From positions 29,330 through 93,329 of the forward strand of contig JAFGNA010000011.1 in assembly GCA_016927245.1 (NCBI GenBank): a DNA stretch of 64,000 nucleotides. The letters run 5' to 3'. Shown piece by piece: positions 3,715-41,495 of this stretch. A program made the translations under genes and the position numbers. Every line of letters starts with the position of its first letter. Positions within the stretch are counted from its first letter, which is position 1. Source of the stretch: Candidatus Woesearchaeota archaeon. GTDB taxonomy: Archaea > Nanobdellota > Nanobdellia > Woesearchaeales > WJKR01. The notes beneath the pieces are model-generated. The model made no database searches, had not been told where the DNA came from, and saw only the letters and a list, made by a program, of their open reading frames with translations.

Positions 3715-3795
3715 GCAGTGCCCTCAAACCCTCTTTTCAGAGGTATCCTTGCAGCAGGTAGTTTAAAAAGTTTGCTTTTTTGTCGAGAATGTTCG

Positions 3796-7294: not shown

Positions 7295-7770
7295 GCGTCC
7301 TCTGCAGTGGCGGGTGCTGTGCCTTCTCCGGGACCAACAGCGAGGGTGACGGTGCCGCCCGCCTTCTTAACCTTTTCTATGGCGCGCGGCGTCGCCGCGG
7401 CGACGGTGATAGCCCACTTCCTGCTCGGCTTGCCCGTGGCGAGGAGCTTGGTGTACCCTGCCTTGGCGAGGTCGATGGACTCGCCGATGAGGAAGCCTTC
7501 TTCTCGCAACGTGACGGCGTGCGACTCGAGGTGGGCTATGGTGACGGGCGATCGCGGGGAGCGGTGCTTGCTGATGAATCCTCGCTTGCCCGCGTAGTTG
7601 GTGCTGCGCCAGATGCTCGGCTTCTTCGCGTCACCTCTTTTTCCGGAGCCGGCGGCGCCGCGGCCGCCGCGGTGGCCCGCTCCTCGGTGCTTCTTCATGG
7701 CGCCCCAGCCGTGCGTCTTGCTGCCTCGCTGCCGGGTGTTCTTCTTGCGCTTGTGGTCCATGGTGATCAC
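7291..7770 (-). CDS. rpl15: Ribosomal protein uL15
   Basis: GRGxGSGxGKTxGRG Gly/Arg-rich N-terminus. Position between L30 and secY. Confidence 0.9.
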   Translation of the reverse strand: MITMDHKRKKNTRQRGSKTHGWGAMKKHRGAGHRGGRGAAGSGKRGDAKKPSIWRSTNYAGKRGFISKHRSPRSPVTIAHLESHAVTLREEGFLIGESIDLAKAGYTKLLATGKPSRKWAITVAAATPRAIEKVKKAGGTVTLAVGPGEGTAPATAEDA

Positions 7771-8159
7771 GTCATCCTCTTGATGAGCTCGTCCATGCGC
7801 TCCTTGCGGTCGCCAAGGGCTCCTCCTGTCGAGAAGGGCTTCTTGATGCCTTTGCGCTCGAAGCCGCCGCGAGGGGGGTGAAGGGCGAAGGCTTGCTGCT
7901 CCTCGCCGGCGCCCCGCCGCTTGGCGAGCTCTCGATAGGTCTCGTCGGCGATGGCGCCCCAGGTGATGGCGTCCTTGGCCTTGCGGAGCATGCCCCTCGT
8001 CGACGCGTCATCCTTGAGGATGACGCACGCGTGCTTCTTCTTGAGGCCGAGGAGGTCGAGGGTGCGCTTGACGTCGCGGTGGAGCCCTATCCTGCCCCTG
8101 ATGAGCACGGCCACCAACCGTTGGTCGCCTTGTCGATGCGGTTGCTTGTTCTCAGTCAT
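7767..8159 (-). CDS. rpl30: Ribosomal protein uL30
   Basis: LIRGRIGLHRDVKRTLDLLGL motif. Operon position. Confidence 0.85.
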   Translation of the reverse strand: MTENKQPHRQGDQRLVAVLIRGRIGLHRDVKRTLDLLGLKKKHACVILKDDASTRGMLRKAKDAITWGAIADETYRELAKRRGAGEEQQAFALHPPRGGFERKGIKKPFSTGGALGDRKERMDELIKRMT

Positions 8160-8947
8160 GCGTCCTCACCTGTGGGCGTTGCTTCTTCGGCCTCGGCTCC
8201 CTTTTTCGGCGTTCTTCCTTCGATGATGCTGAACTGTTCTATCTGGTCATGCTTGACTTTCATCTTGGAGAGCCGCTTGAGGGCTTGCTCTACGGCCTTG
8301 ACGAGGTTGACCTTGTTCTTTGACTGCCCGCGCGTCCTCGCCCAGCAGTCCTTGATGCCCGCCAGCGCGAGGATCTTCGCCATCTCTTTCTCCACGACGA
8401 GACCTTTGCCTTTCGGCGCGGGCATGAGCTTGACGACGACGCTGCCGCACTTGCCCTCGACGGCGAAGGGGATGCTGTGGGGTTCTGACGAGGAGTCCTC
8501 CCAGCTGCCCGCGCCTCTTCGTATCTTGAACAATGCCAGCTTGGCGTTCCGCACGGCCTTCTCCCGCGCGGGGATGGTCTCCTTGCTCTTGCCAAGGCCG
8601 AGGCCGATGTAGCCGTCCTTGTTGCCGACGACGGCGTACGCGCTGAAGGTCGGCTTGTTGCCTTCCATGGTCTTCTTCTGCGTCTGCCTGAAGACTCGTC
8701 GCTGGCCGCCACCGAACTTTCCCTTGCTCTGGCCGATGAGGATGAGCTCTGATTCCAGGTCGAGGAGGGTGTCCGCTATCTCTGGCTCGAGGACTCGGAG
8801 GCCGTTGTCGAGTATCTGGTCGATGTCGGTGATTTCCTTCGCCTGGACTTTCCTGCCGAGCTCGGTCTTCGGCTGCCAATCGGCGAGGTATGCCTTCGGG
8901 TCTATGTCTTCCCGTCGTCTTCGTGGTTGTCTTGGTCTGGGTGCCAT
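8156..8947 (-). CDS. rps5: Ribosomal protein uS5
   Basis: S5 dsRBD and C-terminal domains (GRRxxFxALVVVGNxxGxVGxGxGKA-like). Likely start MAPRPRQ at 8947; the track ORF over-extends to 9085. Confidence 0.85.
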   Translation of the reverse strand: MAPRPRQPRRRREDIDPKAYLADWQPKTELGRKVQAKEITDIDQILDNGLRVLEPEIADTLLDLESELILIGQSKGKFGGGQRRVFRQTQKKTMEGNKPTFSAYAVVGNKDGYIGLGLGKSKETIPAREKAVRNAKLALFKIRRGAGSWEDSSSEPHSIPFAVEGKCGSVVVKLMPAPKGKGLVVEKEMAKILALAGIKDCWARTRGQSKNKVNLVKAVEQALKRLSKMKVKHDQIEQFSIIEGRTPKKGAEAEEATPTGEDA

Positions 8948-8951
8948 GTGA

Positions 8952-9470
8952 TCATGCTCCTTTCGTGATGGCTTCCTTGAGCTTGCTGAACGCTTCGGCG
9001 ATCGGCGCTCCTTGGACGTGCTTGCCGATGAGCCTGTCTTCCGGCGGGAAGACTTCGTCCGATGCGGGGACGTCAAGCCCGCCATCGATGGCTCCTTTGA
9101 GGGCTGCGTACAGCCGTGATCCTTTGATGGGTGTCTGGAGGCCGAGGTCGAGCACGGCGTGGGCGACCTCGTGCTCCTTGGCGGCGCGTGCGAGGAGGAG
9201 TCCTGTGAGGTAGCACGCGGGGAGGTTCTTGGCGGAGTGCTTCCAGCCCATGCCTTCGAGCTTCTTGCTGCTCACCCCGATGATGACTCGGTCGCCGTCG
9301 GGGTGGTAGTCGACGATCTGCATGATGAGATGCTTGTTCGTCCTCCTGATGACGAGCCGGTGCGTCCTTCCCTTGAGGAGCTCCAGCCGTTTCTTGTAGT
9401 TCGTCTTCCCTTCCCGCTTGCGGCGGTAGGGGACGGTCCTCCTCGTCGTGCTCTTCGTCATGGTGATCAC
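8952..9470 (-). CDS. rpl18: Ribosomal protein uL18
   Basis: RRRxRxGKTNYxxR N-terminus typical of archaeal L18. Confidence 0.9.
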   Translation of the reverse strand: MITMTKSTTRRTVPYRRKREGKTNYKKRLELLKGRTHRLVIRRTNKHLIMQIVDYHPDGDRVIIGVSSKKLEGMGWKHSAKNLPACYLTGLLLARAAKEHEVAHAVLDLGLQTPIKGSRLYAALKGAIDGGLDVPASDEVFPPEDRLIGKHVQGAPIAEAFSKLKEAITKGA

Positions 9471-9919
9471 TCTTTCTTGGTGAGCCTGTGCTCGTCGATG
9501 TAGATCTTGATGTGCTTCTTGCTCCTGAAGAACCCTCCTTTCGCCTTGCGGTAGAGGCCGGTGAAGGTCCGGGTGTCGATGCGGCCCTTGGTCTTGAGTT
9601 CTTTGAGGAAGTCCCGCTGCGCCCTGATGCGCCTCATCCAGGATTCTTTCTTCGGCGCGTGCGCGGTCTTCTTGCCTTTCTTGCTCCCCGCGCCTTTGCG
9701 GAGGCCTTTTCCTCGTTGCGCCTTCCCCTTGTTCGCGCGTGCGCGCGACACGCCCTTCTTCTGGACCTTGGTGATGGCGCCGTCGCCTATCAGTCCTCTG
9801 AGGTCTGTCTTGGTGATGGCTTCTTTGAGGTCTTCTGCCCGTGACGGGTCTACCTTGACGCGCTTCGGGCTGACCTTGAGGATCTTGGCCGCGGTCTTCT
9901 TCTGGTTGTCGAGCTTCAT
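9467..9919 (-). CDS. rpl19e: Ribosomal protein eL19
   Basis: KLxNQKRLAAxILKVGxxRVWxDP-like N-terminus. Confidence 0.9.
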   Translation of the reverse strand: MKLDNQKKTAAKILKVSPKRVKVDPSRAEDLKEAITKTDLRGLIGDGAITKVQKKGVSRARANKGKAQRGKGLRKGAGSKKGKKTAHAPKKESWMRRIRAQRDFLKELKTKGRIDTRTFTGLYRKAKGGFFRSKKHIKIYIDEHRLTKKE

Positions 9920-9926
9920 GGTAGGG

Positions 9927-10523
9927 TCACATGCCTTTCTTGCTGGTCAGGACCTTGTCCTGCTCCTTCTTCGCTTCCTGCTTCTTCTCCTCGTCGCTCT
10001 TGGCGGCTTCGTCCTTGGCGGCTTCCTCGGCTTTCTTCGCCGCCCGCTTCTCTGCTTCCTTGAGCTTCTTGTCCTTGGCCGCTTGTCGCTCTGCCTCTCT
10101 GCGCTTCTTGTCTTCCTTCTCCTTGAGGAGCGCCTTGGTGCGTTCTTGGTACGCCGCGACGGGGAGGTTGGTGATCGCGAGTCCTTTCTTCTTCGCCGCT
10201 TCTATGAGTTGCTCCTTCTTCTTCCTGCCCGTGTTGGCGAGCAGCGCCGCTTGCGTCTTGGGGTCGAGCGCTTCGAGCTCGGCCAGGGTGCTCACGGCGG
10301 TGATGGCTTTGCCCGTCGCGTCCTTGCCGCGCAGGGCTGATGGGGTGCCATGACCGGTCTTGACGACGTCCTTGTAGCCTTTCTTCCGGAGCCGCATCTT
10401 GTTGTGGAGCCCTTTCGGGCGTCGCCAGCCTTCGTTGAGGCGTCGTTTCTTGTGGCTGTCGGCCCTCGTGAACGACGGGTTGGCCGCTTTCTTGTCTTGT
10501 TTTGCCTTGAGGAGCTTCTCCAT
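9927..10523 (-). CDS. rpl32e: Ribosomal protein eL32 with K/E/A-rich C-terminal extension
   Basis: FxRxDSHKKxRLxEGWRRPKGLHNKMR core. About 75 aa of low-complexity Lys/Glu/Ala tail. Confidence 0.85.
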   Translation of the reverse strand: MEKLLKAKQDKKAANPSFTRADSHKKRRLNEGWRRPKGLHNKMRLRKKGYKDVVKTGHGTPSALRGKDATGKAITAVSTLAELEALDPKTQAALLANTGRKKKEQLIEAAKKKGLAITNLPVAAYQERTKALLKEKEDKKRREAERQAAKDKKLKEAEKRAAKKAEEAAKDEAAKSDEEKKQEAKKEQDKVLTSKKGM

Positions 10524-10529
10524 GCGTGA

Positions 10530-11075
10530 TCACATCATTTTTCCTGCTTTCTCGGTGATGTAGATGCCGTCTTGGAAGACGCGCTTGTCGAACCCTGACC
10601 GCTTGGTGAGCTGTTCGATGTCAGCGGCGACTTGTCCTGCCCGTTCCTTGTCGGGGCTCGTCACGGTGATGACGTCGCCGTCTATCTTGACGTCGGCTCC
10701 TTCCTTGAGTGAGAGGACGCGGGGCACCTTTTCGCCGATGAAGTTCTTGACTTCGAGCTTTCCGTCCTTGATAGTGATGCTCATGGGGAAGTGGCCTGAG
10801 CATATCTTGAGCTTGTACGTGAACCCTTCTTTGGCGCCCGTTGCCATGTTCTTGATGTGCGCCTTGTAGGTGAATAGCTTGTTCTTCTGCAGCTTGGTCA
10901 TGTTCTTCCCTGCTAGGGTGACTGCGCCGTCGTTGACGGTTATGGCGAAGGCTCTCGCGGGGAATCCTCGGGATATCTCTCCTTTCTCGCCCTTGAGCGA
11001 GAGGACGTCTCCTTGCTTCGTCGCCTTGACGCCTTCGGGGAGTTCGATGGTTTCGTTGATGTCGAGCCTTGCCAT
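10530..11075 (-). CDS. rpl6: Ribosomal protein uL6
   Basis: Two-domain L6 pattern. Operon position. Confidence 0.9.
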   Translation of the reverse strand: MARLDINETIELPEGVKATKQGDVLSLKGEKGEISRGFPARAFAITVNDGAVTLAGKNMTKLQKNKLFTYKAHIKNMATGAKEGFTYKLKICSGHFPMSITIKDGKLEVKNFIGEKVPRVLSLKEGADVKIDGDVITVTSPDKERAGQVAADIEQLTKRSGFDKRVFQDGIYITEKAGKMM

Positions 11076-11102
11076 GTTCCTCTTCCTTCGCTTGTTTATC
11101 CT

Positions 11103-11504
11103 TTAGTAGCAGTAGCTGATGAGCGTTCCGCCGATGCCTTGCGCTTTCGCTTCCTGATGGGTCATGAGCCCTTTGCTGGTGCTGATGATGATGATGCCGA
11201 AGTCCTTGCTGGGCAGGAAGCGCTGCTCGTACTTCTCGTAGCCGTCTTTGCCGATGCGGAACCGCGGCTTGATGACGCCGCACTGGTTGATGGCGCCGAT
11301 GAGGTGTATTTCGAGCAGGTTTCCTTTGCTGTCTTCGTGTTCCTCGTGGCTGCCGAGGTAGCCGTTGTCCTGCATGATCCGCAGCACGCCTTTGATGAGC
11401 GTCGAGTTCTGCGCAGTCCTGACCGCTTGCTTGCCTTTGCGCTCATAGTTGAGGATGTGGCTGAGGACGTTCGCGAGTGGGTCGTTGTTGGTCATCAATG
11501 TCAC
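11103..11504 (-). CDS. rps8: Ribosomal protein uS8
   Basis: DPLANVLSHILNYERKGK start. 133 aa. Confidence 0.9.
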   Translation of the reverse strand: MTLMTNNDPLANVLSHILNYERKGKQAVRTAQNSTLIKGVLRIMQDNGYLGSHEEHEDSKGNLLEIHLIGAINQCGVIKPRFRIGKDGYEKYEQRFLPSKDFGIIIISTSKGLMTHQEAKAQGIGGTLISYCY

Positions 11505-11507
11505 CTG

Positions 11508-11738
11508 TTAGCTGTACTTCTTGAAGCCGAGTTCTTTCGCCGTCTCTCGGAAGCATTGCCGGCACAGGTTGAGCCCGTACTTGCTGATGTGCGCGCCTGT
11601 TCGGCCGCAGCGAGTGCACTTCTTCGCGCTCTCGCCGAACTTGCGGTCCTTTGGCTTGTTGTGCTTCTCGTACTTCTCCCGCTTGGCTTTCTTGTGGCCT
11701 ATCTGCTTGAGTGTCTTGGCGTGGTCTGACGTGGTCAT
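11508..11738 (-). CDS. rps14: Ribosomal protein uS14 (zinc-binding type)
   Basis: [25 protein letters not shown] CxxC...CxxC. Confidence 0.9.
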
Positions 11739-12262
11739 GCTGCTTCACCGCCGACTGTTATCTTGAACTGTTCTTTCATGAACGCTATGGCGTCCTGCTT
11801 GTTGACGAGGTGGTGCTTGCCTATCTTCCGTTTCTGCCGCTTGCGCTTCTTGACCCTGTAGCCGGGCCTGTCGAGCGTGATGCTGGCTTGGAGCCCGATG
11901 ATGCCGATGTCCGGGTCGTACTTCGCTCCTTGGATGTCGACGTATTCGGGTATGCCGAAGCTGATGTTGCCGTGCTCGTCGAAGCAGCTGCTGCTGAGGG
12001 CGTTGTCCTTCGCTGAGAGTATCCTGGGGATGAGCGCTTCTGCCTCTTTTCCTCGCAGCGTGATCTTGACGCCTATGGGCAGCCCTGGCCTGAGGCTCCA
12101 TCCTTGTATGCGTTTCTGGGTGATGGTGCGCACCGGGTCGATGCCGGTGATGTTCTTGAGGAGCCTCTCGCCTTTCTTGAGCAGGTTCTCGTCCTTGCCG
12201 GCCCCGATGTTCAGGGTGACTTTCTCTATCCTGATGGCTCGCATGTCGGTCATGGTGAACAC
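11735..12262 (-). CDS. rpl5: Ribosomal protein uL5
   Basis: KVTLNIGAG..., [12 protein letters not shown] motifs. Confidence 0.9.
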
Positions 12263-12942
12263 GTGATCGCTGGTTGCTGCTCGCCGGTGATGTACACGTA
12301 GGCGCGCTTGGTGCCGAACTCTTTGTCCTCGGTCTTGATGACGGCCGCGTCGCCGCTGATCCCTTGAAGCGTGCCGGTCATGCCGGCGTGCTTGCCTTTG
12401 TACACGATGATGCTGGCGCCTTCCTTGAGCGCGAGGCGTTGCTTTACTTCTTGCTCGGGGAGGGTGATGAGTAGTGAGTCGCCGACGGCGTACTCGTCCT
12501 TGTCGGTGATGATCGTCCGGCCGTCGCTGAGCTGGATCTGCGTCTTGCCCTTGCTCACGGTCCGCTTGCCGTCTATCCGCGCGATCTTAAGCTTTGCTTC
12601 CTTCTCGGGGATGGGTATCGCTTGGAGCTTTCCCTTGGCTGAGAAGCCGAGCCGGTAGTGCTGCTTGGTCTTGGGGAAGCTAATGACGTCCATGAACCCG
12701 ACGTTGTAGCGCTCGTCGTGCCGTCGCTTGCCGTCGACGAGGACTTCCTGCTCCTTGATGATGCGCTTTGCCTCCTTGCGGGTGTCAGCGACGCGGGCCA
12801 GTTCTTTCATGAACGTGTTGAGGCTGGTGCTGTGCGTGAGGGGGTGGGCTCCTGGGTTTGGGCGCGTGATGAACACGTGTCGCTTCCTGAGGATGTCCCA
12901 TGTCTTCGGGGCGGCTATCCGTTTGAGATGGTGCTGTGCCAT
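12250..12942 (-). CDS. rps4e: Ribosomal protein eS4
   Basis: HLKRIAAPKTWDILRK N-terminus, KOW-like region. Confidence 0.9.
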   Translation of the reverse strand: MAQHHLKRIAAPKTWDILRKRHVFITRPNPGAHPLTHSTSLNTFMKELARVADTRKEAKRIIKEQEVLVDGKRRHDERYNVGFMDVISFPKTKQHYRLGFSAKGKLQAIPIPEKEAKLKIARIDGKRTVSKGKTQIQLSDGRTIITDKDEYAVGDSLLITLPEQEVKQRLALKEGASIIVYKGKHAGMTGTLQGISGDAAVIKTEDKEFGTKRAYVYITGEQQPAITCSP

Positions 12943-13340
12943 TATCGCTTTGCTCCTTGTGCTTGTCGTTCGAGCTTTGCCTTGCGCTTCTTGTCATCAA
13001 GGTTGAGCTCGGTGATCATGAGGTTTGAGGGGTGGAATGCTTGTTGGACCTTGTTCCCGTCGGGCTTGGTGCGCTCCACCTTGAGGAGGTAGACTTTGGT
13101 GCGCTTGAGGTCTACTTTCTCCACCTTCGCTTCTTTTCCTTTGTTGCTGCCCCTGAGCACCTTGACCTTGTCGCCTTCGCGCAGCCTGGCTGAGCGCTTG
13201 CCGTGCTTCTTCTTGAGCTCTTCCGAGAGGTGCGCTGAGAGGAATCGTCCCTTGACGTGGTACGGCGCGTTGTGCGCGTACTTGCGCTGCTTGCGTCGCT
13301 GCTCGCTCCTGTTCCAGGTGGTTGCGAATGCTGGTTTCAT
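12942..13340 (-). CDS. rpl24: Ribosomal protein uL24
   Basis: KOW motif GDKVKVLRGSNKGKEAKV. Confidence 0.9.
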   Translation of the reverse strand: MKPAFATTWNRSEQRRKQRKYAHNAPYHVKGRFLSAHLSEELKKKHGKRSARLREGDKVKVLRGSNKGKEAKVEKVDLKRTKVYLLKVERTKPDGNKVQQAFHPSNLMITELNLDDKKRKAKLERQAQGAKR

Positions 13341-13347
13341 GTTGTCG

Positions 13348-13749
13348 TCACACGATGATGTTGGCTACCTTCGCGATGCCCGACCATCTGGTCGTGGCCT
13401 CCTTCGCGATGGGCCCTTTGAAGATGGTGCCTTTGGGGTTTCCCTTCTCGTCCTTGAGGACGACCGCTGCGTTGTCTTCGAACTTGATGCGGGTGCCGTC
13501 GGGGCGCCTGTACTCTTTTCGTTGGCGGACGATGACGGCGAACACGACTTGCTTGCGCATGTCAGGCCTTCCCTTGACCACGCTTGCCTGGACGAGGTCG
13601 CCGATGCCTGCGGCGGGGCTCTGGCCCTTGACGGTCTTGTGGCCTTTGACGCTGAATATCTTGAGGACCTTGGCGCCGCTGTTGTCGCAGGTCTCTATCC
13701 TGCTGCCTAGCGGGAGCCCTTTGGTGATCGTGGCGTTGACCGCTTTCAT
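13348..13749 (-). CDS. rpl14: Ribosomal protein uL14
   Basis: LxVCDNSGAKxLxII-like start (IETCDNSGAKVLKIF). Confidence 0.9.
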   Translation of the reverse strand: MKAVNATITKGLPLGSRIETCDNSGAKVLKIFSVKGHKTVKGQSPAAGIGDLVQASVVKGRPDMRKQVVFAVIVRQRKEYRRPDGTRIKFEDNAAVVLKDEKGNPKGTIFKGPIAKEATTRWSGIAKVANIIV

Positions 13750-14156
13750 GCTTGTTCACTCTTCTCGGCCTTCTTCTTCGGGGCGGCCTTCTTCTTCGGG
13801 GTCTTCTTCGGAGCGGCCTTCTTCTTGGCTGCTCGCTTCGCGGATTGCTCCTTCTTGGGTGCCTCTTTAGGGGCTGCTGGCGCTTCTTCTGCTTCTTCTC
13901 CGCCGAGCTTCTTGATGATGGTGAAGCGCTTGGTCTTGCTGAGCGGCCTCGTCTCCATGATGATGACCTTGTCGCCGGTGCGCGCGTCGATGTCGTCCGG
14001 GTTGTGTGCCTTGACCTTGGTGCGCCGCTTCTCGTACCGCTCGTACTTAGGGATGTAGTGCCTCCTATTCCATTCGACCGTGACGGTCTTGCTCATCTTG
14101 TCGCTCGTCACGATGCCGATGAAGGTGCGTCCGCGCGTGCTGGTCTTGGTGTTCAT
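13746..14156 (-). CDS. rps17: Ribosomal protein uS17 with Lys/Ala/Pro-rich C-terminal tail
   Basis: OB-fold core (GIVTSDKMSKTVTVE). About 55 aa AKKKAAPKK-type extension. Confidence 0.9.
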   Translation of the reverse strand: MNTKTSTRGRTFIGIVTSDKMSKTVTVEWNRRHYIPKYERYEKRRTKVKAHNPDDIDARTGDKVIIMETRPLSKTKRFTIIKKLGGEEAEEAPAAPKEAPKKEQSAKRAAKKKAAPKKTPKKKAAPKKKAEKSEQA

Positions 14157-14392
14157 GGTCTGTTCCCTTTGATGCGTTCCGTTGGTGTCTTGGTGATGTC
14201 CTTCCCTCGGATGATGTCTCCCTCGACGTTGAGGGTGACGTGGTCCTTGATGAAGGTCTTGTCGTCGATGGTGATGGTGTTCTTCGTCTCGTCGGTGATG
14301 ACGCCTTCCTTACCGGTGAGCGTCGGGTTGGTGCTACTCGTGATGCGCGCATGCCTGCCTATCAAGGGCTTCCTCTTCTCGGCTCCTCTCAT
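14153..14392 (-). CDS. rnp1: RNase P protein component 1 (Rpp29/Pop4)
   Basis: LIGRHARITSSTNPTLTGKEGVITDETKNTITI matches the Rpp29 Sm-like barrel. Classic position between L29 and S17. Confidence 0.75.
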   Translation of the reverse strand: MRGAEKRKPLIGRHARITSSTNPTLTGKEGVITDETKNTITIDDKTFIKDHVTLNVEGDIIRGKDITKTPTERIKGNRP

Positions 14393-14715
14393 CGTCGGAG
14401 GTGGGCGTTCACGATCTCGATGGTGTCAGGGGCGAAGCCGAGCTTGACGAGCTCGCTCTTGATGTCCTTGGCGTGGTTGCCTTGGAGCTCGATGAAGCCG
14501 TCCTTCGCGGTGCCGCCGCACGCGAACTTCGCTTTGAGCTTCTTTGCCAGGTCCTTGATGTCGATCTCGTGCTCATTGATGCCTTCTACCACGGTGTAGG
14601 GTTTGCCGAACTTCTTCTTGGTGAGGGACACGGTGACCTTCTGGTTCTCCTTTGCGAGGCTCTCGAACGTGCCCAGCTCCTTGGGAAGCCCGGTGATGGG
14701 ATCAATTTCCGGCAT
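14389..14715 (-). CDS. sui1: Translation initiation factor aSUI1 (eIF1 homolog)
   Basis: GKPYTVVEGINEHEIDIKDLAKKLKAKFACGGTAKDGFIELQGNH matches the SUI1 signature. Confidence 0.85.
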   Translation of the reverse strand: MPEIDPITGLPKELGTFESLAKENQKVTVSLTKKKFGKPYTVVEGINEHEIDIKDLAKKLKAKFACGGTAKDGFIELQGNHAKDIKSELVKLGFAPDTIEIVNAHLRR

Positions 14716-14920
14716 GCTGTTGCTGTACCTCCTTCTGTTGTTGTGTGCGCAGGGTGTGTATCCTTGCGATGATCTTCTTGAACTGCTTGATCTGGCCGGG
14801 GCTCTTCGGCGCGGTACCCGTGGCCACTTGTGATTGGAGTTTGATGAGCTCGGCGCGGACCTCTTTCTCCTTCTTGTCGAGGTCTTCAGGCCTCATCGCG
14901 GAGAGCTCTGCGTACTTCAT
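14702..14920 (-). CDS. rpl29: Ribosomal protein uL29
   Basis: 72 aa helical protein, ELxKLxxxxATG-like. Operon position. Confidence 0.85.
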   Translation of the reverse strand: MKYAELSAMRPEDLDKKEKEVRAELIKLQSQVATGTAPKSPGQIKQFKKIIARIHTLRTQQQKEVQQQHAGN

Positions 14921-15657
14921 TGCCTGTCACCTGTTTCTTGCTCTTTCTCTGCCTTCCCTGACGATCCTCCTGGCTTCTCGTCCTTCGCGGGCGTTTCTTC
15001 CTCGGTCGCTTCTCCTGCGGGTGTCGCTTGCTCTTCTGTCTCTTCGACCATGGTCTGCGGCTGGTTGAGGAGTTCTACGCTGTCAGGGAGCTTGGTGTCT
15101 CCTGGCATGATGCTGACTTTGATGCCGACAGCCCCTGTCTTGAGGAACGCGGTGGTGTACGCCACGTTGACGCCGGTGAGGGCGATGTCGCCGCACTTCT
15201 TGAGGTAGCCTTCGTAGAAGCGCCAGTTCTTGGCTCGTTGGCTGGGGACCTTGCCGCTGATGATGATCTCGACGCCGAGCGCTCCTGCTTGCATGACGCC
15301 TCGCAATGCCTTGTAGCCGGCGCCCTTGAACTGCTTGGTGCCGAACCGCTCCATGGATGAGGCGATGCTCTCCGCGACGATGGAGGGGTCGAGGAAGACT
15401 TCTTGTATCTCCTCTATCTCTATCTGCGGGTTCTCGAGGTCGAAGTGCTCTTTGAGGTCCTTGGTGAGCTTCTGGATGTTGCTGCCTGCTCGTCCGACGA
15501 CGAGTCCTGGCCTGCTCGCGCTCACCACGATTTTCTCTCCGAGGGGGGTCCGCTGGAGCTTGACTTCGCTGAGGCCTACTCTGTTGAGGTGGCTGGCGAC
15601 GAATTCCTTGATGCGGAACTCCTTCATGTTTTCCGAGACGAATTTCCTTTCTATCAT
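14917..15657 (-). CDS. rps3: Ribosomal protein uS3 with acidic/T/P-rich C-terminal tail
   Basis: KH-domain GRAGSNIQKLTKDLKE plus S3 C-terminal domain. Confidence 0.9.
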   Translation of the reverse strand: MIERKFVSENMKEFRIKEFVASHLNRVGLSEVKLQRTPLGEKIVVSASRPGLVVGRAGSNIQKLTKDLKEHFDLENPQIEIEEIQEVFLDPSIVAESIASSMERFGTKQFKGAGYKALRGVMQAGALGVEIIISGKVPSQRAKNWRFYEGYLKKCGDIALTGVNVAYTTAFLKTGAVGIKVSIMPGDTKLPDSVELLNQPQTMVEETEEQATPAGEATEEETPAKDEKPGGSSGKAEKEQETGDRQ

Positions 15658-16394
15658 GGTTGCGCGTTCTCCTTTGCTCCTGGTGTGGGTGCTGCTTGTT
15701 CCTTGTCGTCCTTGCCTGCGGTCTTCTTCGTCGCTTCTGGCTTCGGCTTCGCCGCCTTCTTGGGTTGTTCGGCCTGTTTCGGTGTTGGCTGCTTCCCGGG
15801 CGCGTCTTCCTTGGCGGTCTCAGGCTTCTCCTTGGCCGCTGCTGGCGTGGTCGTTGCGCTCCTGCTCGTCCCTGCTTCTTCTTCGGGTCGTTCTGGCGCT
15901 TCCTTCTTCGTGGCGGGTGGTTGCGCGGTCTTCGTGGCTTTCTTTGCTTTCCGCTTCGCGCCCGGCGCCTCTACCACGACAATCTCGACGTGCGTCCGCT
16001 TGGTCTGCCGTCGTCGCTGCCTGCCGAAGTGGAACGGCCTGCTTGCGAGGTGCGCTGCGAGGTGCTTGATGAGGAGGTCTGTTGCCAGTCCTTGCTGGCT
16101 CGCGTTGGCTTCTGCCATGTTGATGAGGTCTATGAACGCCTTGCTCGCTTTCTCCGGGTACCTGCCCGCGGCGATGCCTCGCTTGTGGCCGACGCCGTTG
16201 GTGAACCGTTTGAACGGGAGGGCTTCTTGCCGTTTGATGACTCGTTCGAGGTATGCTTTTGCCGCGTCGGTCCGCTTGCCTCGGAGGTGGTTGCAGAGTT
16301 CTATGGCTGCTTTGGTGCTGATGGGCGCGTCCTTGAGGACCGCTCTCGCAGCGTCTTGTCCCGATCCTTGGTATGCGTAGGTGTAATCAGCCAT
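15654..16394 (-). CDS. rpl22: Ribosomal protein uL22 with about 90-aa Lys/Ala/Pro/Glu-rich C-terminal extension
   Basis: L22 core about 155 aa. Tail is PAAAKEKPETAKEDAPGKQPTPKQAEQPKKAAKPKPE.... Confidence 0.9.
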   Translation of the reverse strand: MADYTYAYQGSGQDAARAVLKDAPISTKAAIELCNHLRGKRTDAAKAYLERVIKRQEALPFKRFTNGVGHKRGIAAGRYPEKASKAFIDLINMAEANASQQGLATDLLIKHLAAHLASRPFHFGRQRRRQTKRTHVEIVVVEAPGAKRKAKKATKTAQPPATKKEAPERPEEEAGTSRSATTTPAAAKEKPETAKEDAPGKQPTPKQAEQPKKAAKPKPEATKKTAGKDDKEQAAPTPGAKENAQP

Positions 16395-16401
16395 TTTCTT
16401 C

Positions 16402-16788
16402 TTATCTCACTGACGCGGCGGCGCTGCTCTTCGTGGCGCCTACGCCTGGCCCTCCGTGCTTGACGATCTTCCTGGTGAGGGCGAGTTGTCCGAGGCGCAT
16501 GCCGATCATCTCTGGTTGGACGTGCACGTCGTTGTATCCTTTGCCGTTGTGCACCTTGATGACCTTGCCTACCATGTGGGGGAACACGATCATCTCTCGG
16601 TGGTGCGTCTTGACGTTGTCCTTTCGCTTGGTCTTCTCGTATAGTTGCTTGAGCTCTTCGCTCATCCTATTGGCGGTTCGTCGCTCCCTCGTCGGGAGGA
16701 GCTCGACGAAGCCGTCGAAGTCCAGGTCATTGAGCTGCTCGACGGTGTAGCCTCGGTACGTGAATTCCTTTCTTGCCATGATCATCAC
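16402..16788 (-). CDS. rps19: Ribosomal protein uS19
   Basis: KEFTYRGYTVEQL..., IVFPHMVGKVIKVHNGKGY. Confidence 0.9.
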   Translation of the reverse strand: MMIMARKEFTYRGYTVEQLNDLDFDGFVELLPTRERRTANRMSEELKQLYEKTKRKDNVKTHHREMIVFPHMVGKVIKVHNGKGYNDVHVQPEMIGMRLGQLALTRKIVKHGGPGVGATKSSAAASVR

Positions 16789-16789
16789 T

Positions 16790-17491
16790 TCATCGTTTCC
16801 TGCCGGTCCTCCTCGCGGCGATGGCGCCGACCTTCCTGCCGGGCGGCGCGTTCCTGCTCGTCGGCTTGGCTTTCGACTTCCTGAGCGATCGTTTGTTGCC
16901 GAATGGGTGGGCGACGGCGTTCATCGCGCTGCCTGATACTGAGGGGTAGTACTTGTTCCTCGCCTTCATGGCGTGGTGCCGCTTGCCCGCTTTGAGGAAT
17001 GGTTTCTCCGTCCTGCCGCCGCCGGCGACGATGCCGATGATGGCTCTGCAGTTGGGGTTGAAGGTCTTGCTCTTCTTGCTGGGGAGCTTGACCGTGACTC
17101 CTGTGTCTGACCGGGCGACGAGCTTTGCCGCGCCGCCGCTGCTCCTGACGAATCGTCCGCCGTCTCCTGGTTTGAGCTCGATGTTGAAGACGGGGGTGCC
17201 TTCAGGGATTGCTTTGAGGGGGAGGACGTTGCCGTGGCTGATGGGCGCCTCTGCGCCCATGGGGTAGGTCTTGCCGACGTAGATGCCTTCCGCTGCGATG
17301 ATGAGCCCGTGGGTGTTGTCGTCGTACTTGACCCGTGCGAGGGGGGCGCTGTGGCCTGTGCTGTGGAGGAGGTCTATCACCTCGTATGATTGCTTTGGCT
17401 GCACCGTTGCTTCGCCTGCGGATGCGAAGCTCTTGGCGCGGAACCTGCCGCTTCCTTTTCCTCTTCGTTGCTGGATGAGGTTCTTGCCCAT
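16790..17491 (-). CDS. rpl2: Ribosomal protein uL2
   Basis: GGGRTEKPFLKAGKRHH..., SGSAMNAVAHPFG motif. Confidence 0.9.
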   Translation of the reverse strand: MGKNLIQQRRGKGSGRFRAKSFASAGEATVQPKQSYEVIDLLHSTGHSAPLARVKYDDNTHGLIIAAEGIYVGKTYPMGAEAPISHGNVLPLKAIPEGTPVFNIELKPGDGGRFVRSSGGAAKLVARSDTGVTVKLPSKKSKTFNPNCRAIIGIVAGGGRTEKPFLKAGKRHHAMKARNKYYPSVSGSAMNAVAHPFGNKRSLRKSKAKPTSRNAPPGRKVGAIAARRTGRKR

Positions 17492-17505
17492 GTTCTTTTT
17501 TCTCC

Positions 17506-17757
17506 TTACATGAGGCCGAGCTTGGTGGCCACGTCTATCGCGGGGGTTTCTTTGTTGAACGTGATGTACGCTCGTTTCTTGTTGTCGTGCGTGTTGAGGG
17601 TCCTGACGTCGTCGACCTTGACGTTGAACGCTTCTTCGATGGCTTGTTTTATCTGTGGCTTGGTCGCTTGTTGGTCGACGATGAAGATGAGCTGGTTCTG
17701 GCTTTCCATGAGCCTGATGCTCTTCTCCGTTGAGAGAGGGTACTTGATGATGTTCAT
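17506..17757 (-). CDS. rpl23: Ribosomal protein uL23
   Basis: IIKYPLSTEKSIRLME start. Confidence 0.9.
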   Translation of the reverse strand: MNIIKYPLSTEKSIRLMESQNQLIFIVDQQATKPQIKQAIEEAFNVKVDDVRTLNTHDNKKRAYITFNKETPAIDVATKLGLM

Positions 17758-18692
17758 GCGCTCACCTCAGGCTTCGCTGCGGCTTTGGGCGCGTCCGCAT
17801 GCTTGGCTTGCTTTGCTTGCTTGGGTGCGGGTTTCTTCGCCGGCGCTTCTTCCTCTGACGGCTTCTTTGCCTGCTTGGCTCGTTGCTCGGTGAACAGCTT
17901 GTCCTTTCCTAGTCTGTCGATCGCTGCTTGGGTGTACAGGGTCATCCTGCCGGGCGCGGCTCCTGGTGCGAGGATCTCGGCGTTGAGCTCGTCCACTTTG
18001 GTCGCTTCGACGCCGGGGATGTTGTCTGCCGCGTTGAGGAGCGGGCAGTCATCACTGGTGACGATGAGGATGCTCGTCGCTCGCTTGTACTTGCGGCCGC
18101 GCATGGTGCCTCTGCCTGCTCGTACCTTGCGGTTCTCCGCTCGTGCGAGGTCGTCAGCTAGTCCTATGTCGCGCAGCGCTTGTTCGAGGTCTTTGGTCTT
18201 CTTGAGTTGTTCGAAGTCGTCGGTGATGATGAAGGGGTACGTCTCAGGCGTTTTGTGTCCTCGTGCGCTGACGAGGTCCTTGTCCATGGTGGCCGCCATG
18301 GCTGACCGTATGGCTTTCCGTCGTTCCTTGTCGTTGATCTTGATGGCGGTCTGCTTGTCCGCTTTGGGGGGGTGCGCTCGTCGGCCGCCGACGGTTTGCG
18401 GGGCGAACGCGCCGGTCCAGTTGAACCTGGTGCCTCGGTAGCTCATGGCTTTCCTTGGGGTTCTTGATTGGCCGATGCCGTACGTTCCTCGGTAGTCGTG
18501 CCGTCGTTTGCTGATGCGGACGCTGGCGCGCTTGCCCGCTCCGGGGTCTGCGCCGTGGCGTTCCTTCCTGGCTGCTTGTAGGGCGAGGACTGCTCGTTTG
18601 ATGAGGTCTGGCCGGACCGCTTCTTGGAATTGCGCTGGCAGGGTCGTCTTGCCTTTGTTCGTGTTGTCCGGTGCGATGATGGCGAGTTGCAT
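17754..18692 (-). CDS. rpl4: Ribosomal protein uL4 with Lys/Ala/Pro-rich C-terminal extension
   Basis: L4 core plus about 60 aa AKKPSEEEAPAKKPAPKQAKQAK tail. Confidence 0.9.
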   Translation of the reverse strand: MQLAIIAPDNTNKGKTTLPAQFQEAVRPDLIKRAVLALQAARKERHGADPGAGKRASVRISKRRHDYRGTYGIGQSRTPRKAMSYRGTRFNWTGAFAPQTVGGRRAHPPKADKQTAIKINDKERRKAIRSAMAATMDKDLVSARGHKTPETYPFIITDDFEQLKKTKDLEQALRDIGLADDLARAENRKVRAGRGTMRGRKYKRATSILIVTSDDCPLLNAADNIPGVEATKVDELNAEILAPGAAPGRMTLYTQAAIDRLGKDKLFTEQRAKQAKKPSEEEAPAKKPAPKQAKQAKHADAPKAAAKPEVSA

Positions 18693-18695
18693 GGC

Positions 18696-19673
18696 TTATC
18701 TTCCTTGCTTGCTGTCCTTGTTGATGGCTTTCACGGTCGGTGCGGGTTGCTTCTTCTTCTGCCTGATGGCTTTTGCCATGATGACTAGTCGTTTCTTCGG
18801 TCCTGGCACCGTGCCTTTGATGAGGAGGTAGGTGTTCTTGACGTTGCCGTAGTGGGTGATGCCGCCTGCTTGGTTGACTTCTTCCGGGGCGTCGCTTATC
18901 TTGAGGATGGCGTTGTTGTATTGTGTTCGTTGGTGGTAGCCCATCTGTCCCGCGTGGGCGATGCGGTACATGAAATGCGCTTGGCCTGACCAGCCGCCGA
19001 GCGAGCCGGGGGTGCGTCGTCCTTTCTCGCTCTTGTGTGGTTTGAGGCCTATGCCGAACCGCTTGACGGCTCCTTGGAATCCTTTGCCGGTGGTGATGGC
19101 GTGGAGGTCTATGAGGTCTCCTTCTCGGAGGAGGTCTTGCGCGGTTATCTCTTTGTTGGCGTGCTCTTTGACGTAGGCGAGTTTTTCCTCGTTGGTCCCT
19201 CCTAGTTTGATCTCGAAGAGGTCTGGCTTCTTCTTGAAGCCTATCTTCTTGGGCTGGGTGTACGCGATGATGGTGATGTCTTTCGCTTCTTCGGGGTTGA
19301 TGGCGTTGATGTCGTGCTTGGCGTTCTTGGGGATGGTGAGCTTGCGTGCGAGGTCTTTGTCCGTGTTGATGATGACTTCCTTGCTGACCGCGACGCCGTA
19401 GCCGTGGGGCTTGTAGGCGCGTACGCTGTATATCCTCATGGGCGGGCATTCGATGATGGTGACGGGGATGGTGATTTCTTGGTTCTTGGAGGTCGAGGAT
19501 TTGCGGTTGTCCGTCGCGGTGATGTGGGTCATGCCTGCTTTGTAGCCGGCGAACGCGAGGGGCTTGGCGTCTTTGGCCGTGGCCCATGACCGCACCCTGG
19601 CTACTGGTCTCTTGGCTCGTTTCCGGGGCCAGTATTGCATGCTGCCGAATCGTGGTCGTTTCGCCTTTGGCAT
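18696..19673 (-). CDS. rpl3: Ribosomal protein uL3 (first gene of the operon)
   Basis: FAGYKAGMTHI..., FQGAVKRFG signature. 325 aa. Confidence 0.9.
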   Translation of the reverse strand: MPKAKRPRFGSMQYWPRKRAKRPVARVRSWATAKDAKPLAFAGYKAGMTHITATDNRKSSTSKNQEITIPVTIIECPPMRIYSVRAYKPHGYGVAVSKEVIINTDKDLARKLTIPKNAKHDINAINPEEAKDITIIAYTQPKKIGFKKKPDLFEIKLGGTNEEKLAYVKEHANKEITAQDLLREGDLIDLHAITTGKGFQGAVKRFGIGLKPHKSEKGRRTPGSLGGWSGQAHFMYRIAHAGQMGYHQRTQYNNAILKISDAPEEVNQAGGITHYGNVKNTYLLIKGTVPGPKKRLVIMAKAIRQKKKQPAPTVKAINKDSKQGR

Positions 19674-19971
19674 GGTGTCGTCCTTGTGAGTGCAGCCTTT
19701 TGCTGGAGCATCCCTTGAGAATACGCTCTTCGCGTACTGAAAAGGGGCTTCTTTTCAGGCTGCTGGTGTGTTCGTCACAATCCTTTGAAGGTGACGTGTG
19801 GTGGGGGAGAACGTGAAGGGTTTTTTAAAGCTATCGTGTGGAAAAGAATGTTAAAAAAATTAGTTTCCATATAGTAATTTCTATAAGGAACATAATCTGT
19901 CAGCATACCCAAAAAGAAATAAATTCTATAAAGAAAATAATTCGGGGAAAACAAAGAGAGAACAAAAAGAC
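19674..19971 (-). promoter_or_regulatory. Ribosomal-protein operon promoter and leader. Elements are a leader hairpin (~19737-19763), a TATA-like TTTTTTAAAG (~19821-19830) and a tandem palindromic upstream motif (19863-19896).
   Basis: AT-rich region upstream of rpl3. Motif gtTTCCATATAGtaatTTCTATAAGGAAcataat is shared with the pheS and rpl34e promoters. Inverted repeat tgaaaagGGGCTTCttttca lies in the leader. Confidence 0.5.
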
Positions 19972-20896: not shown

Positions 20897-22423
20897 TCAT
20901 GAGTGGTCCTCTCGCGCTTTCTGCCGCTCACGATACGCCCGCCGCATCGCCTTCTGCTCATCGGTGAGCTTCGCGCGTCCGCCCTTCCCCCTCCCTTGCG
21001 AGTGCTCATATTTCAGCCTCGCGTACTGCAACGGGTTCTTGATGCGGTCGCAGAACTCGTCAGGCCTGCACACCCCGAAGTCCTGGTAGTACCGCTTGCA
21101 GTTGTGCGGCGGCGCGGCGTCCTTCTTAGCCCGCTCGTAACGCAACCGCCCCTTGATGATCACTTGCCGCAAAGGCTCCTCGTTCTGCTGGTTCCACTCG
21201 TCCAATCGGTCTTCTATCTGCTCGAAGCTCCAACCAGCGCCGCGCAGGAAGTTGATGAGGGTGAAGAGCGCTCGCTTGCGCCCGTCTTTCAGACCGGAAA
21301 GCATGGCATGGATGCAAGGAGGAAAGTATTCTTCTGGGATGGCCTCTTCGGGGATGGCGTACTCTTTCTTCTCCGCGACGTCCTCTTCCAGTTTGGGATC
21401 GGAGTCGTACGCGGCGATGAGGAGCTTCGTCGCCTCTTCGGGCACGGCCGCTGAGCGGTCGAGGAAGGGAATGGAGAAGTCCACAGCATCGGGTTCGGCC
21501 TGTGATTTCTTGAACGAGAGCACCCTGTCCTTGTCGACGGGCACGCTCACCAGTTCGGACTTCTCATGGAAGCTGTAGGGCATGCGGTAGAGGTGCCGGT
21601 GCGCCAATAAGATGGTGTCAACCTCGATGATGGTGAGCGGGTCGAACCTGGCAGGGCCCTCCCTCCGCCGCTGCCGCGTGACGTGCTCCTGCATGATCGC
21701 GCCGCACGACGGGCACAGGTTCGTCCCTCCTTCCTGGTCCGTCTTGGCGATGAGGCCGCACGACGGGCAGAGCAAGTGCACCTTGCGCTCCTCCTCCTGC
21801 GCGGTGGTGAGATCCTCGACGCGCTTCCCGAGGCGCTTCGCCAATCGCTCCTTGCTAATCCGGTACTGCCCGTCGAACAAGAGGTGGTCGTCGCGCTCTT
21901 CCAAGTAGTGCTCAACGAGGTAGTCGAGGAGGTAGTACGCGATCCTCCTCGGCGCTTCCGGGAACAAGTCCTTCGTCTTTTGTCCTTGGAACATCTCAGG
22001 GAATGACTGGAACGGGACGGCGACGTGGAATCCTTTGTTCCCGCTGAACTTCGCCGTGACCGCGGCGATGCCGTGCGCCTCCAGCGCCTTGATGAAGAGG
22101 TGGGTGATGAGCTTGGACAACGGCCAGTACGGGCAGTCCACGTCGAGGATGAGATCCCACCCTGTCCGGAGCTCCTCGACGTCCTTCCTACCCATACCGG
22201 TCTGGATGAGCAAGGGGTTGCTCCACAACTCCTCAGAGCAGTGAAACGAAGAGGCTTTCTTCTTCGCGAGCTCGAGCACGTCGCCCTCATTGAACAACGC
22301 GTCGGGGCGCTTCCCGAAAAAGGTCTGGAACCGCACCGAGACCTCCTTGTCACGGGCCTGCTCGACGAGGGCTCGCCGCACCTCGGGCAGCTTGTAGAAT
22401 GAGAGCGTCTTGGCGATGAACAT
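20897..22423 (-). CDS. priSL: Fused DNA primase: PriS catalytic domain, then zinc ribbon, then PriL C-terminal Fe-S domain
   Basis: PriS motifs LILDVD (DxD), FSGNKGFHVAVPF (SGxRGxH) and RHLYRMPYSFHEKSELVSVPVD. Zn ribbon CPSCG..x11..CPSCG. C-terminus FPPCIHAML plus three further Cys (NCKRYY..GVCRPDEFCDRIKNPLQY) match the PriL-CTD 4Fe-4S domain. No PriL N-terminal domain. Confidence 0.75.
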   Translation of the reverse strand: MFIAKTLSFYKLPEVRRALVEQARDKEVSVRFQTFFGKRPDALFNEGDVLELAKKKASSFHCSEELWSNPLLIQTGMGRKDVEELRTGWDLILDVDCPYWPLSKLITHLFIKALEAHGIAAVTAKFSGNKGFHVAVPFQSFPEMFQGQKTKDLFPEAPRRIAYYLLDYLVEHYLEERDDHLLFDGQYRISKERLAKRLGKRVEDLTTAQEEERKVHLLCPSCGLIAKTDQEGGTNLCPSCGAIMQEHVTRQRRREGPARFDPLTIIEVDTILLAHRHLYRMPYSFHEKSELVSVPVDKDRVLSFKKSQAEPDAVDFSIPFLDRSAAVPEEATKLLIAAYDSDPKLEEDVAEKKEYAIPEEAIPEEYFPPCIHAMLSGLKDGRKRALFTLINFLRGAGWSFEQIEDRLDEWNQQNEEPLRQVIIKGRLRYERAKKDAAPPHNCKRYYQDFGVCRPDEFCDRIKNPLQYARLKYEHSQGRGKGGRAKLTDEQKAMRRAYRERQKAREDHS

Positions 22424-26394: not shown

Positions 26395-26640
26395 ATGGAG
26401 GTCGCGTACATCCTCGTCCAAGCCCGTCACGGCAAGCTCAAAATAGCGTCTGCGGCGCTGCGCAAGTATGAGGAGATTGAGGAGCTTCACGAGATCTACG
26501 GCAGGTATGACATCATCCTCAAGGTGGTGTGCGCGGACCGGTCAGAGATGAAATCGTTCATGCAGAACAAGCTGCACATCACCGAAGGCATACGCGCGAC
26601 GGAGACATTGGTGGTGAATGACCTGCAGAGCGGGGAGTGA
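26395..26640 (+). CDS. Stand-alone Lrp/AsnC C-terminal ligand-binding (RAM) domain protein
   Basis: AYILVQARHG...YGRYDIILKVVCADRSEM...GIRATETLVV matches the AsnC_trans_reg domain. 81 aa. Confidence 0.7.
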   Translation: MEVAYILVQARHGKLKIASAALRKYEEIEELHEIYGRYDIILKVVCADRSEMKSFMQNKLHITEGIRATETLVVNDLQSGE

Positions 26641-40984: not shown

Positions 40985-41120
40985 CGATTTTCGTAGAAAA
41001 TCAGACGGAGCTGCAAGCGAAGTGACCAAGGTCGTGTTTAGCTCTTCCGAAGCCGCAGGCTGAGAGGACGCAGTCCGTGGGTCGAGGAGAACTTTTGTTC
41101 GACGACGAAGTCACTGTTCC
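40985..41120. repeat. Non-coding repeat element, copy A of a ~150-nt family
   Basis: ttcgtagaaaatcagacggagctgcaagcgaag...cgtgggtcgaggagaacttttgttcgacgacgaag is about 70-75% similar to copies at 41893-42045 and 42048-42090. Confidence 0.4.
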
Positions 41121-41492: not shown

Positions 41493-41495
41493 ACC

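Follow-up and report, generated by a model that had tools for sequence, protein, structure and literature searches.

Among the closest described counterparts of the element reported here are the operators of the TrmB family of archaeal regulators. The element itself is a short palindrome that recurs upstream of translation-gene promoters in a 64-kb stretch of a high-GC Candidatus Woesearchaeota (DPANN) genome (contig JAFGNA010000011.1; the whole 64-kb stretch is referred to as the window). Published TrmB-family operators comprise TACT-N3-AGTA for TrmB of Pyrococcus and Thermococcus, the TGM motif TATCAC-N5-GTGATA for TrmBL1/Tgr, and TACT-N7-8-GAGTA for Halobacterium TrmB (PMC4158304). The woesearchaeal motif shares with these a palindromic inverted repeat read by a winged helix-turn-helix (HTH) dimer (here as a prediction), a half-site, T(A/T)CT, that resembles TACT, the use of one motif across a functional set of promoters, a site upstream of the BRE (B recognition element) and TATA box that is associated with activation, and the presence in the same window of two genes of the TrmB family encoding Y50-D51. 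It is distinct from them in its half-site spacing, which at N4 is identical to none of the published N3, N5 or N7-8 arrangements, in having translation genes rather than sugar metabolism as its targets, in that the local TrmB paralogues are without the sugar-binding subdomain, and in its abutting 14-bp tandem units, which have not been described for TrmB.

Upstream activating sites of the Lrp/AsnC type form a second group for comparison, and include those of Ptr2 of Methanocaldococcus jannaschii, LysM and Ss-LrpB (PMC2995911). These are clustered, imperfect palindromes of 13–17 bp with an AT-rich centre, a description that the 14-bp dyad fits, and in both cases the core site lies upstream of the promoter at a constrained position. 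Lrp/AsnC systems activate by TBP recruitment, which by analogy would also suit the role proposed for the motif below. Whereas these sites approach the BRE to within a few bp, the proximal woesearchaeal unit keeps a distance of ~16 bp; units are spaced by 14–15 bp rather than by two to three helical turns, and no full-length Lrp was seen in the window, only a protein consisting of the RAM domain (26395–26640).

The upstream activating sequence of GvpE, found at haloarchaeal gas-vesicle promoters, is likewise short, bipartite and located upstream of the BRE, and serves two divergent promoters between which it lies centrally or in overlap (PMC2241852). A similar divergent arrangement is seen in the rsuA/rpl34e region of the window and in the aIF2beta/orf26 region of a related genome (L090), although the GvpE element has another sequence, is used by a bZIP-like activator, abuts the BRE and is unrelated to translation genes. 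Dedicated ribosomal promoter elements are found in other domains of life, as Rap1/Fhl1 sites and the TCT initiator in eukaryotes, and as Fis sites and UP elements at bacterial rrn promoters. The likeness to these is one of concept only, in that an upstream element and a pyrimidine-rich TTCTCC box at the start site mark ribosomal-protein promoters; there is no homology of sequence or protein, the transcription machinery is a different one, and the regulon suggested here would be small and lineage-specific. To our knowledge, little work has addressed how archaea coordinate ribosomal-protein gene transcription, and a literature search found no described ribosomal-protein promoter motif, regulator or promoter-specific factor for archaea or DPANN.

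When the site upstream of rpl3 was read in gene orientation and compared with relatives, the repeat unit resolved into a 14-bp dyad, TTNCNNTANNGNAA, with the consensus TTWCtaTAtwGWAA (Table 1). Six positions (T2, C4, T7, A8, G11 and A13) are invariant in all 25 aligned unit instances and pair up as T2/A13, C4/G11 and T7/A8; as these three invariant pairs are complementary, the dyad symmetry is real, which bears out the symmetric core proposed in an earlier, sequence-only reading of the window. The half-site T(A/T)CT carries A in 28% and T in 68% of the 25 instances. Units are either single or directly abutting, with a 14–15-bp period, and the clusters of the window are composed of pairs and triplets of the dyad with a TATATA centre.

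The sequence-only reading had described nearly identical 20–24-mers upstream of rpl3, between rsuA and rpl34e, and upstream of pheS. All three sites were found at the coordinates given there and their recurrence stands, although the unit is better described as a 14-bp dyad than as a 20–24-mer. The tandem pair that had been noted at rpl3 is present as two abutting units, accompanied by a weaker third unit for which no counterpart was seen in relatives. The rsuA/rpl34e copy exists, but had been reported as one when it is really a tandem pair, of which only the second unit had been recognised, and a three-unit cluster at 44.3 kb, which forms a fourth motif region and the strongest cluster, was absent from that reading. 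A weaker copy suggested in the replication-origin (oriC) region (~34387) was not supported as a member, being a single unit of 8.4 bits at 215–240 bp from both neighbouring start codons.

Genes of the window are GC-rich, with a GC content at third codon positions of ~0.75–0.85, and its spacers are AT-rich. As intergenic DNA has a GC content of ~30–35% against ~60% in genes, whole-window shuffles overstate significance and are too lenient for the AT-rich spacers. Significance was assessed with a symmetrised matrix trained on sites from relatives only, against 300 shuffles of the window in 100-bp blocks using first-order Markov chains. This gave 7 matches of at least 10 bits against 0.33 expected (shuffle maximum 3), all seven being located in the rpl3, orf26 and rsuA/rpl34e spacers. 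None of the seven lies in a coding region, and the motif is confined to promoter-upstream DNA. Within the 4.3 kb of AT-rich islands alone, a matrix that included window sites returned 6 matches of at least 13 bits against 0.09 expected.

A promoter survey, recording the best score in the 250 bp upstream of 35 transcription-unit starts, revealed a bimodal distribution, with motif promoters at 13–17 bits and ordinary ones at no more than 1.8 bits. In-between scores were given by the region upstream of the integrase gene (5.4), the pheS unit (7.6), the oriC copy (8.4) and aIF2beta (9.9), the last being the 44.3-kb cluster counted from 231 bp away. Four transcription units carry the motif: the rpl3 operon; rpl34e-rpl14e with the divergent rsuA; pheS-SLOG-pheT; and orf26/orf135, to which aIF2beta is added in L090. 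Tandem pairs are found at both of the window's ribosomal-protein transcription units, for which a probability of ~0.01 by chance was calculated by hand, given four motif regions among 34.

Relatives were identified as contigs encoding close L3, PheS and TBP homologues, and five related genomes retain the motif at the orthologous promoters while the flanks diverge. The rpl3 tandem pair is retained in L001 (L3 80% identical) and L002 (73%), with differences in the distal flank and in the 18–19 bp that separate the pair from the promoter; one unit is left in L083 (74%), and no unit was found upstream of rpl3 in L084–L086 (68–70%). Clean tandem pairs occupy the rsuA/rpl34e spacer of L088 and L089, with a single unit in L090, and a 16-bit unit is present upstream of pheS in L087, L088 and L089 at the position of the window's degenerate unit. 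The orf26 cluster of L090 has the same three-unit layout (pair at 3179–3207, proximal unit at 3226–3239); this genome has a GC content of 42%, yet its TBP is 96% identical to that of the window. Conservation at orthologous positions spans genomes of 42–60% GC, and the retention of the motif at orthologous promoters while the surrounding intergenic sequence diverges is the signature of a functional cis-element.

Beyond these genomes, a PheS-seeded search of genome contigs provided a distant comparison set from Woesearchaeota whose PheS is at most 57% identical in full-length matches; it comprises 80 loci and 1.2 Mb, with a median GC of 34%. The motif was not found upstream of pheS in these 80 loci. 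Tandem pairs were absent from the 1.2 Mb, and only 12 single matches reached 14 bits, most of them within genes. This near-absence from AT-rich distant Woesearchaeota marks the motif as a cis-element that is under selection in one lineage, and not as something that AT-richness brings about. Among the other promoters in ~180 kb of clade sequence, none carries the motif, and a scan of metagenomes with the tandem pattern CNNTATAGWAWTTACTATANNGMAA returned six loci of 18–41% GC in unrelated contexts, with no new clade members. The same scan picked up an array of ATTACTATATAGTAAT-like palindromes at positions 160–340 of L093 (JGI contig Ga0310342_100473797, GC 18%), an extremely AT-rich sequence whose context is unrelated to that of the woesearchaeal sites.

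Each target possesses its own canonical TATA box, 30–33 bp from the ATG or from the start of a conserved leader, and this includes rsuA and aIF2beta. The ATG of rpl34e, pheS and orf26 follows the TATA 5' edge by 30–33 bp, which implies leaderless or near-leaderless mRNAs; at rpl34e, the TATA and GTTCTCC boxes are so near the ATG that the mRNA would itself be leaderless or nearly so. The distance from the centre of the proximal unit to the TATA edge falls into three classes: 27–34 bp at rpl34e (31 bp in the window), pheS (27 bp, from a TATA box at 59012–59020) and orf26; 40–42 bp at rpl3 in three genomes (41 bp in the window) and at pheS in L089; and 51 bp at rpl3 in L083. These classes step by roughly one helical turn. 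In the two-promoter spacers, the unit facing rsuA (the distal one in L088 and L089, the single one in L090) is 28.5–30.5 bp from the divergent rsuA TATA box, and the first unit of the L090 cluster is 30.5 bp from the divergent aIF2beta TATA box (both measured by hand), so that each TATA box in these spacers has a unit at ~30 bp. No unit overlaps the BRE, TATA box or start site at any of the 14 promoters examined, and the spacer between unit and BRE is not conserved among relatives.

What is observed is that the motif exists, is symmetric, is restricted to promoters, is conserved at orthologous promoters and falls into spacing classes. We take these observations to indicate, with a probability of roughly 0.7, that the motif is a cis-regulatory operator or upstream activating sequence for a dimeric HTH factor that co-regulates part of the translation machinery. 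The 14-bp palindrome would be bound by a dimeric (winged) HTH protein, one dimer per unit, with a flexible, invariant TpA at the centre and, on either side of it, the major-groove half-sites T(A/T)CT and AG(A/T)A at a mutual distance of ~9–10 bp (about one helical turn), and abutting units would be occupied by two dimers binding cooperatively. With the proximal unit centred ~30, 41 or 51 bp upstream of the TATA box, the factor would be positioned at about -60, -71 or -81 relative to the start site. All three positions lie upstream of the BRE and, as it appears, on a single helix face relative to TBP/TFB, from which the factor would stimulate pre-initiation complex formation in a helix-face-dependent manner. 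The small regulon coordinated in this way would consist of the rpl3-to-secY operon, rpl34e-rpl14e and rsuA, pheS-pheT, and the small-ORF/orf135 unit near TBP. TrmBL1/Tgr, Ptr2, LysM and TFB-RF1 act as activators from sites upstream of the BRE/TATA region, and binding of archaeal regulators over this region or downstream of it leads to repression (PMC4158304, PMC2995911). Because archaeal regulators activate from such upstream sites, the placement of the motif most likely denotes, by analogy, an activator rather than a repressor.

Several points weigh against the operator interpretation. That a protein binds, in which direction it regulates and which factor it is are matters that we infer from sequence, and the case for helical phasing is built from two spacing shifts and four independent promoters. 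The proximal unit ends ~16 bp or more short of the BRE, instead of abutting it in the manner of the Ptr2, LysM and Ss-LrpB sites, while the 14-bp centre-to-centre pairing would place neighbouring dimers on different helix faces, unlike arrays of the Lrp type with their spacing of two to three turns. Enrichment at translation genes is modest in the window: they account for 4 of the 5 promoters with the motif and for 11 of all 35 (p ~0.03 in a hypergeometric test, by hand). No motif was found among the 35 scored upstream regions for the window's aIF2beta, tRNA-Ala, pelota, FmrO, RNase P p30 or SAMP/NcsA, and one motif target, orf26/orf135, is without an assigned function. The proposal that the motif is a common element of translation-gene promoters accordingly holds for rpl3, rpl34e and pheS, and not for the whole translation apparatus.

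As to the factor itself, the two TrmBL2-like paralogues of the window are the leading candidates, an assignment that we regard as tentative, and that predicted protein features suggest. Both resemble TrmBL2 in length and architecture, and although they are 55% identical overall, their winged HTH and recognition helix are almost identical (VPRSRSYD[I/V]LESLEKKG), including Y50-D51. These two residues are listed among the DNA-recognition residues of TrmB and TrmBL2, and TrmB proteins of this kind read TACT half-sites (PMC4158304). The near-identity suggests that one DNA motif may be read by both paralogues, which could form a heterodimer, for instance, or compete as a pair. Two facts count against the candidates and, with them, against the operator reading: Thermococcus TrmBL2 is a low-specificity chromatin protein (PMC4158304), and no motif copy was found upstream of either TrmB gene in the window, so that there is no hint of autoregulation.

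The same sites could also serve a repressor or architectural operator, at which a TrmBL2- or Lrp-like oligomeriser would nucleate, spread or loop, occlude the BRE and TATA box, and shut down ribosome synthesis in poor conditions. Cooperative oligomerisation would agree with the clustering and abutting of units and with the extra distal ones, TrmBL2 acts as a repressor when promoter-bound (PMC4158304), Lrp proteins wrap DNA (PMC2995911), and ribosomal-protein promoters are normally strong and in need of down-regulation, not of activation. This alternative is nevertheless judged unlikely, since the BRE, TATA box and start site are free of units at every one of the 14 promoters, the spacer between unit and BRE is not conserved, and the position-dependent precedent favours activation from upstream sites (PMC4158304). 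Considerably less probable still is a role for the units as auxiliary TATA-like sequences, CTATATAG, that bind TBP/TFB without a dedicated factor, giving rise to secondary or divergent promoters or acting as a TBP sink at strong promoters. The TATATA core does resemble a TATA box, GAAAT precedes TACTATAT at unit junctions in a BRE-TATA-like manner, and two of the four regions are divergent (rsuA/rpl34e, and aIF2beta/orf26 in L090). The invariant C4, G11, T2 and A13, however, fall outside the positions read by TBP, and TTTC-TATA-GAAA reverses the BRE-TATA order; moreover, every target already has a canonical TATA box, with the units 27–100 bp further upstream, outside the core promoter. The rpl3 and pheS sites follow co-directional genes, at which no divergent transcript is needed, and ordinary promoters of the window score no higher than 1.8 bits.

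Two further explanations dispense with a promoter function, and both are given very little weight. The geometry of the 28-bp tandem pairs, TTTCTATATAG-TAATTA-CTATAGTGAAA in L088, is the 11-6-11 layout of dif recombination sites (PMC2958812), and an integrase gene and AT-rich island lie 0.6–3 kb from the 44.3-kb cluster, which could point to sites for a XerA-like recombinase (42792–43658) or to mobile-element attachment sites. A dif site, however, occurs once per chromosome, in the termination region (PMC2958812), whereas at least three pairs are found here within 35 kb around the Cdc6/oriC region; lone units exist at pheS and, in L090, at rpl34e, the cluster of L090 is kept without a nearby integrase, and positions are fixed relative to TATA boxes across genomes. 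Least probable of all is a chance or compositional likeness of low-complexity AT-rich promoter DNA. The composition of the spacers does inflate the significance obtained from whole-window shuffles, but the local-composition shuffles leave the excess in place (0.33 expected, 7 observed), 1.2 Mb of AT-rich relatives are almost free of matches and have no pairs, the G and C positions are invariant, and the sites are conserved at orthologous positions across genomes of 42–60% GC.

Two other assignments were rejected outright. A terminator or RNA-level element does not agree with the location of the rsuA/rpl34e site between divergent genes, or with units upstream of TATA boxes. An origin recognition box (ORB or mini-ORB) was dismissed as the oriC copy at 34387 stands alone at 8.4 bits, with no related repeats in 34100–34650.

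The operator interpretation is accompanied by observations on the promoters downstream of the motif. A box, (G/A)TTCTC(C/A), lies 9–11 bp after the TATA box, at the expected transcription starts of rpl3, rpl34e and aIF2beta, with equivalents in L001, L002 and L083–L090. At rpl3 it is invariant in all seven sequences, and within the high-GC clade it is almost restricted to these three translation-gene promoters. It has the look of an initiator-type element peculiar to translation genes, and recalls the eukaryotic TCT/5'TOP motifs. The TATA box and structured leader that the sequence-only reading had assigned to rpl3 were confirmed, with a leader of ~130–140 nt (19674–19805, minus strand) in place of the ~120 nt estimated. 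This leader is conserved in seven Woesearchaeota (window, L001, L002 and L083–L086), and RNAalifold predicts 29 pairs in it, 10 of them with compensatory changes, such as CGUCAC/GUGACG to CGUUAC/GUAACG (alignments A1 and A2). Rfam has no family for the rpl3 leader, nor for a structured region at 44.4 kb. As a candidate, the rpl3 leader would be new among the leaders of archaeal ribosomal-protein operons, and it might serve as an autoregulatory site bound by L4 or L3.

The gene calls of the sequence-only reading were confirmed by Pfam and NCBIfam scans, on which the gene map in Table 1 is based.

Table 1. Motif units, core-promoter elements, candidate factors and neighbouring genes in the 64-kb window.
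Feature	Position	Strand	Remarks
rpl3 promoter-proximal unit TTACTATATGGAAA	19864–19877	-	16.8 bits, relatives-only matrix; kept in L001, L002
rpl3 distal unit of tandem pair GTTCCTTATAGAAA	19878–19891	-	14-bp period; orthologous unit in L001, L002
rpl3 third, weaker unit TTTCTTTATAGAAT	19923–19936	-	12.3 bits; 100 bp from TATA edge
rpl3 core promoter, BRE-like sequence and TATA box TTTTCCACACGATAGCTTTAAAAAA	19821–19845	-	TATA columns invariant in seven aligned sequences
rpl3 GTTCTCC box at expected transcription start	19806–19812	-	TTCTC invariant in alignment A1
rpl34e distal unit TTTCATTATGGTAA	53815–53828	+	13.5 bits; unit nearest divergent rsuA promoter
rpl34e-rpl14e proximal unit TTTCTATATGGAAC	53829–53842	+	Exact match; pair kept in L088, L089, single unit in L090
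rpl34e TATA box TTTATAAA, then GTTCTCC box	53867–53890	+	ATG at 53898
rpl34e GTTCTCC box	53884–53890	+	Pattern scan
pheS-SLOG-pheT single unit ATGCCATATAGAAA	59041–59054	-	7.6 bits; degenerate in window
Tandem pair TTTCACTATAGTAT and TTACTATATTGCAA before orf26/orf135 unit	44293–44306, 44307–44320	+	Matrix scan
Proximal unit TTTCATTAAGGAAA of orf26 cluster	44339–44352	+	12.9 bits; 29 bp upstream of TATA 44375–44383
aIF2beta GTTCTCA variant box	~44075–44081	-	Pattern scan
TrmBL2-like paralogue 1, candidate binder	33350–34153	-	PF01978 and PF11495; next to oriC/cdc6
TrmBL2-like paralogue 2, candidate binder	60852–61661	-	PF01978 and PF11495; two genes upstream of pheS, conserved synteny
L3-to-SecY ribosomal-protein operon	5963–19673	-	~30 genes
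rpl3 (L3)	18696–19673	-	
Cdc6/Orc1	34609–35850	+	
aIF2beta	43655–44068	-	
tRNA-Ala	44150–44223	+	
orf26/orf135 target unit	44405–45004	+	Just upstream of TBP
orf135, zinc-ribbon protein	44597–45004	+	
TBP	45343–45900	+	
MCM	45975–48002	+	
RsuA-like pseudouridine synthase	52845–53768	-	
rpl34e	53898–54161	+	Pfam L34e
rpl14e		+	NCBIfam L14e; next after rpl34e
pheS	57458–58987	-	Followed by SLOG protein and pheT, minus strand

The motif target next to TBP begins with a 26-codon open reading frame, 44405–44485 (MMDSRHAWMTYVIVRDCVLFAKRSAC), which is 25–26 codons long and shows synonymous changes in L090 (unit at 3296–3903); the GC-rich spacer that follows it folds better than shuffled sequences (z = -3.98). 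The downstream gene, orf135, was weighed as an autoregulated factor, but returned no Pfam, NCBIfam or PDB sequence match, and its single-sequence AlphaFold model (mean predicted local distance difference test, pLDDT, 74.5) gave no significant fold match. It belongs to a very small family, for which 1.84 billion clusters yielded only 32 representatives.

Other features of the window were recorded alongside the motif. An AT-rich island at 41000–43660 (GC 0.31–0.40), which includes an open reading frame for a ParE/YoeB-like toxin (41496–41825) and ends in the XerA-type tyrosine recombinase, adjoins aIF2beta and tRNA-Ala, and may be an integrated element; L090 has neither the tRNA nor the integrase at that position. 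A 508-aa PriS-PriL fusion (20897–22423, minus strand) combines the primase small- and large-subunit domains, and is encoded directly upstream of rpl3 in most relatives. MCM in the distant relatives L091 (1293–4709) and L092 (987–4403) contains an intein with a LAGLIDADG endonuclease domain, for a total of 1138 aa, whereas the 675-aa MCM of the window has none. The stand-alone Lrp/AsnC RAM-domain protein (plus strand, 81 aa, no HTH) is encoded beside the Hef helicase-nuclease gene, and occurs also in L001 (1634–1876) and L085 (4178–4405). Stand-alone RAM-domain proteins modulate full-length Lrp regulators in Pyrococcus.

In mechanistic terms the motif is of an ordinary type, a palindromic operator or upstream activating sequence, and what is new is its sequence, its target set and its narrow phylogenetic range; the scope of the finding is limited to the same extent, to one lineage and a familiar kind of mechanism. 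A bolder proposal, which may be entertained as a possibility though a doubtful one, is a dedicated DPANN translation regulon, in which one palindrome-binding factor on a fixed helix face upstream of TBP/TFB, together with the TTCTCC box at ribosomal-protein and aIF2beta promoters, would coordinate the expression of ribosomal proteins, rRNA modification and aminoacyl-tRNA synthetase. If true, this would be an archaeal counterpart of the eukaryotic ribosomal-protein-gene regulons, and the target comprising orf135 next to TBP might wire the regulon to the basal transcription machinery.

The genomes of DPANN archaea are tiny and encode few regulators. The motif is short and well defined, with few candidate binders, and recombinant proteins and synthetic DNA suffice for testing it. 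For an uncultivated lineage that probably depends on a host, a conserved operator shared by the main operon of ribosomal proteins, by rpl34e-rpl14e and by the genes for an rRNA pseudouridine synthase and Phe-tRNA synthetase would offer a concrete and testable way into the control of growth.

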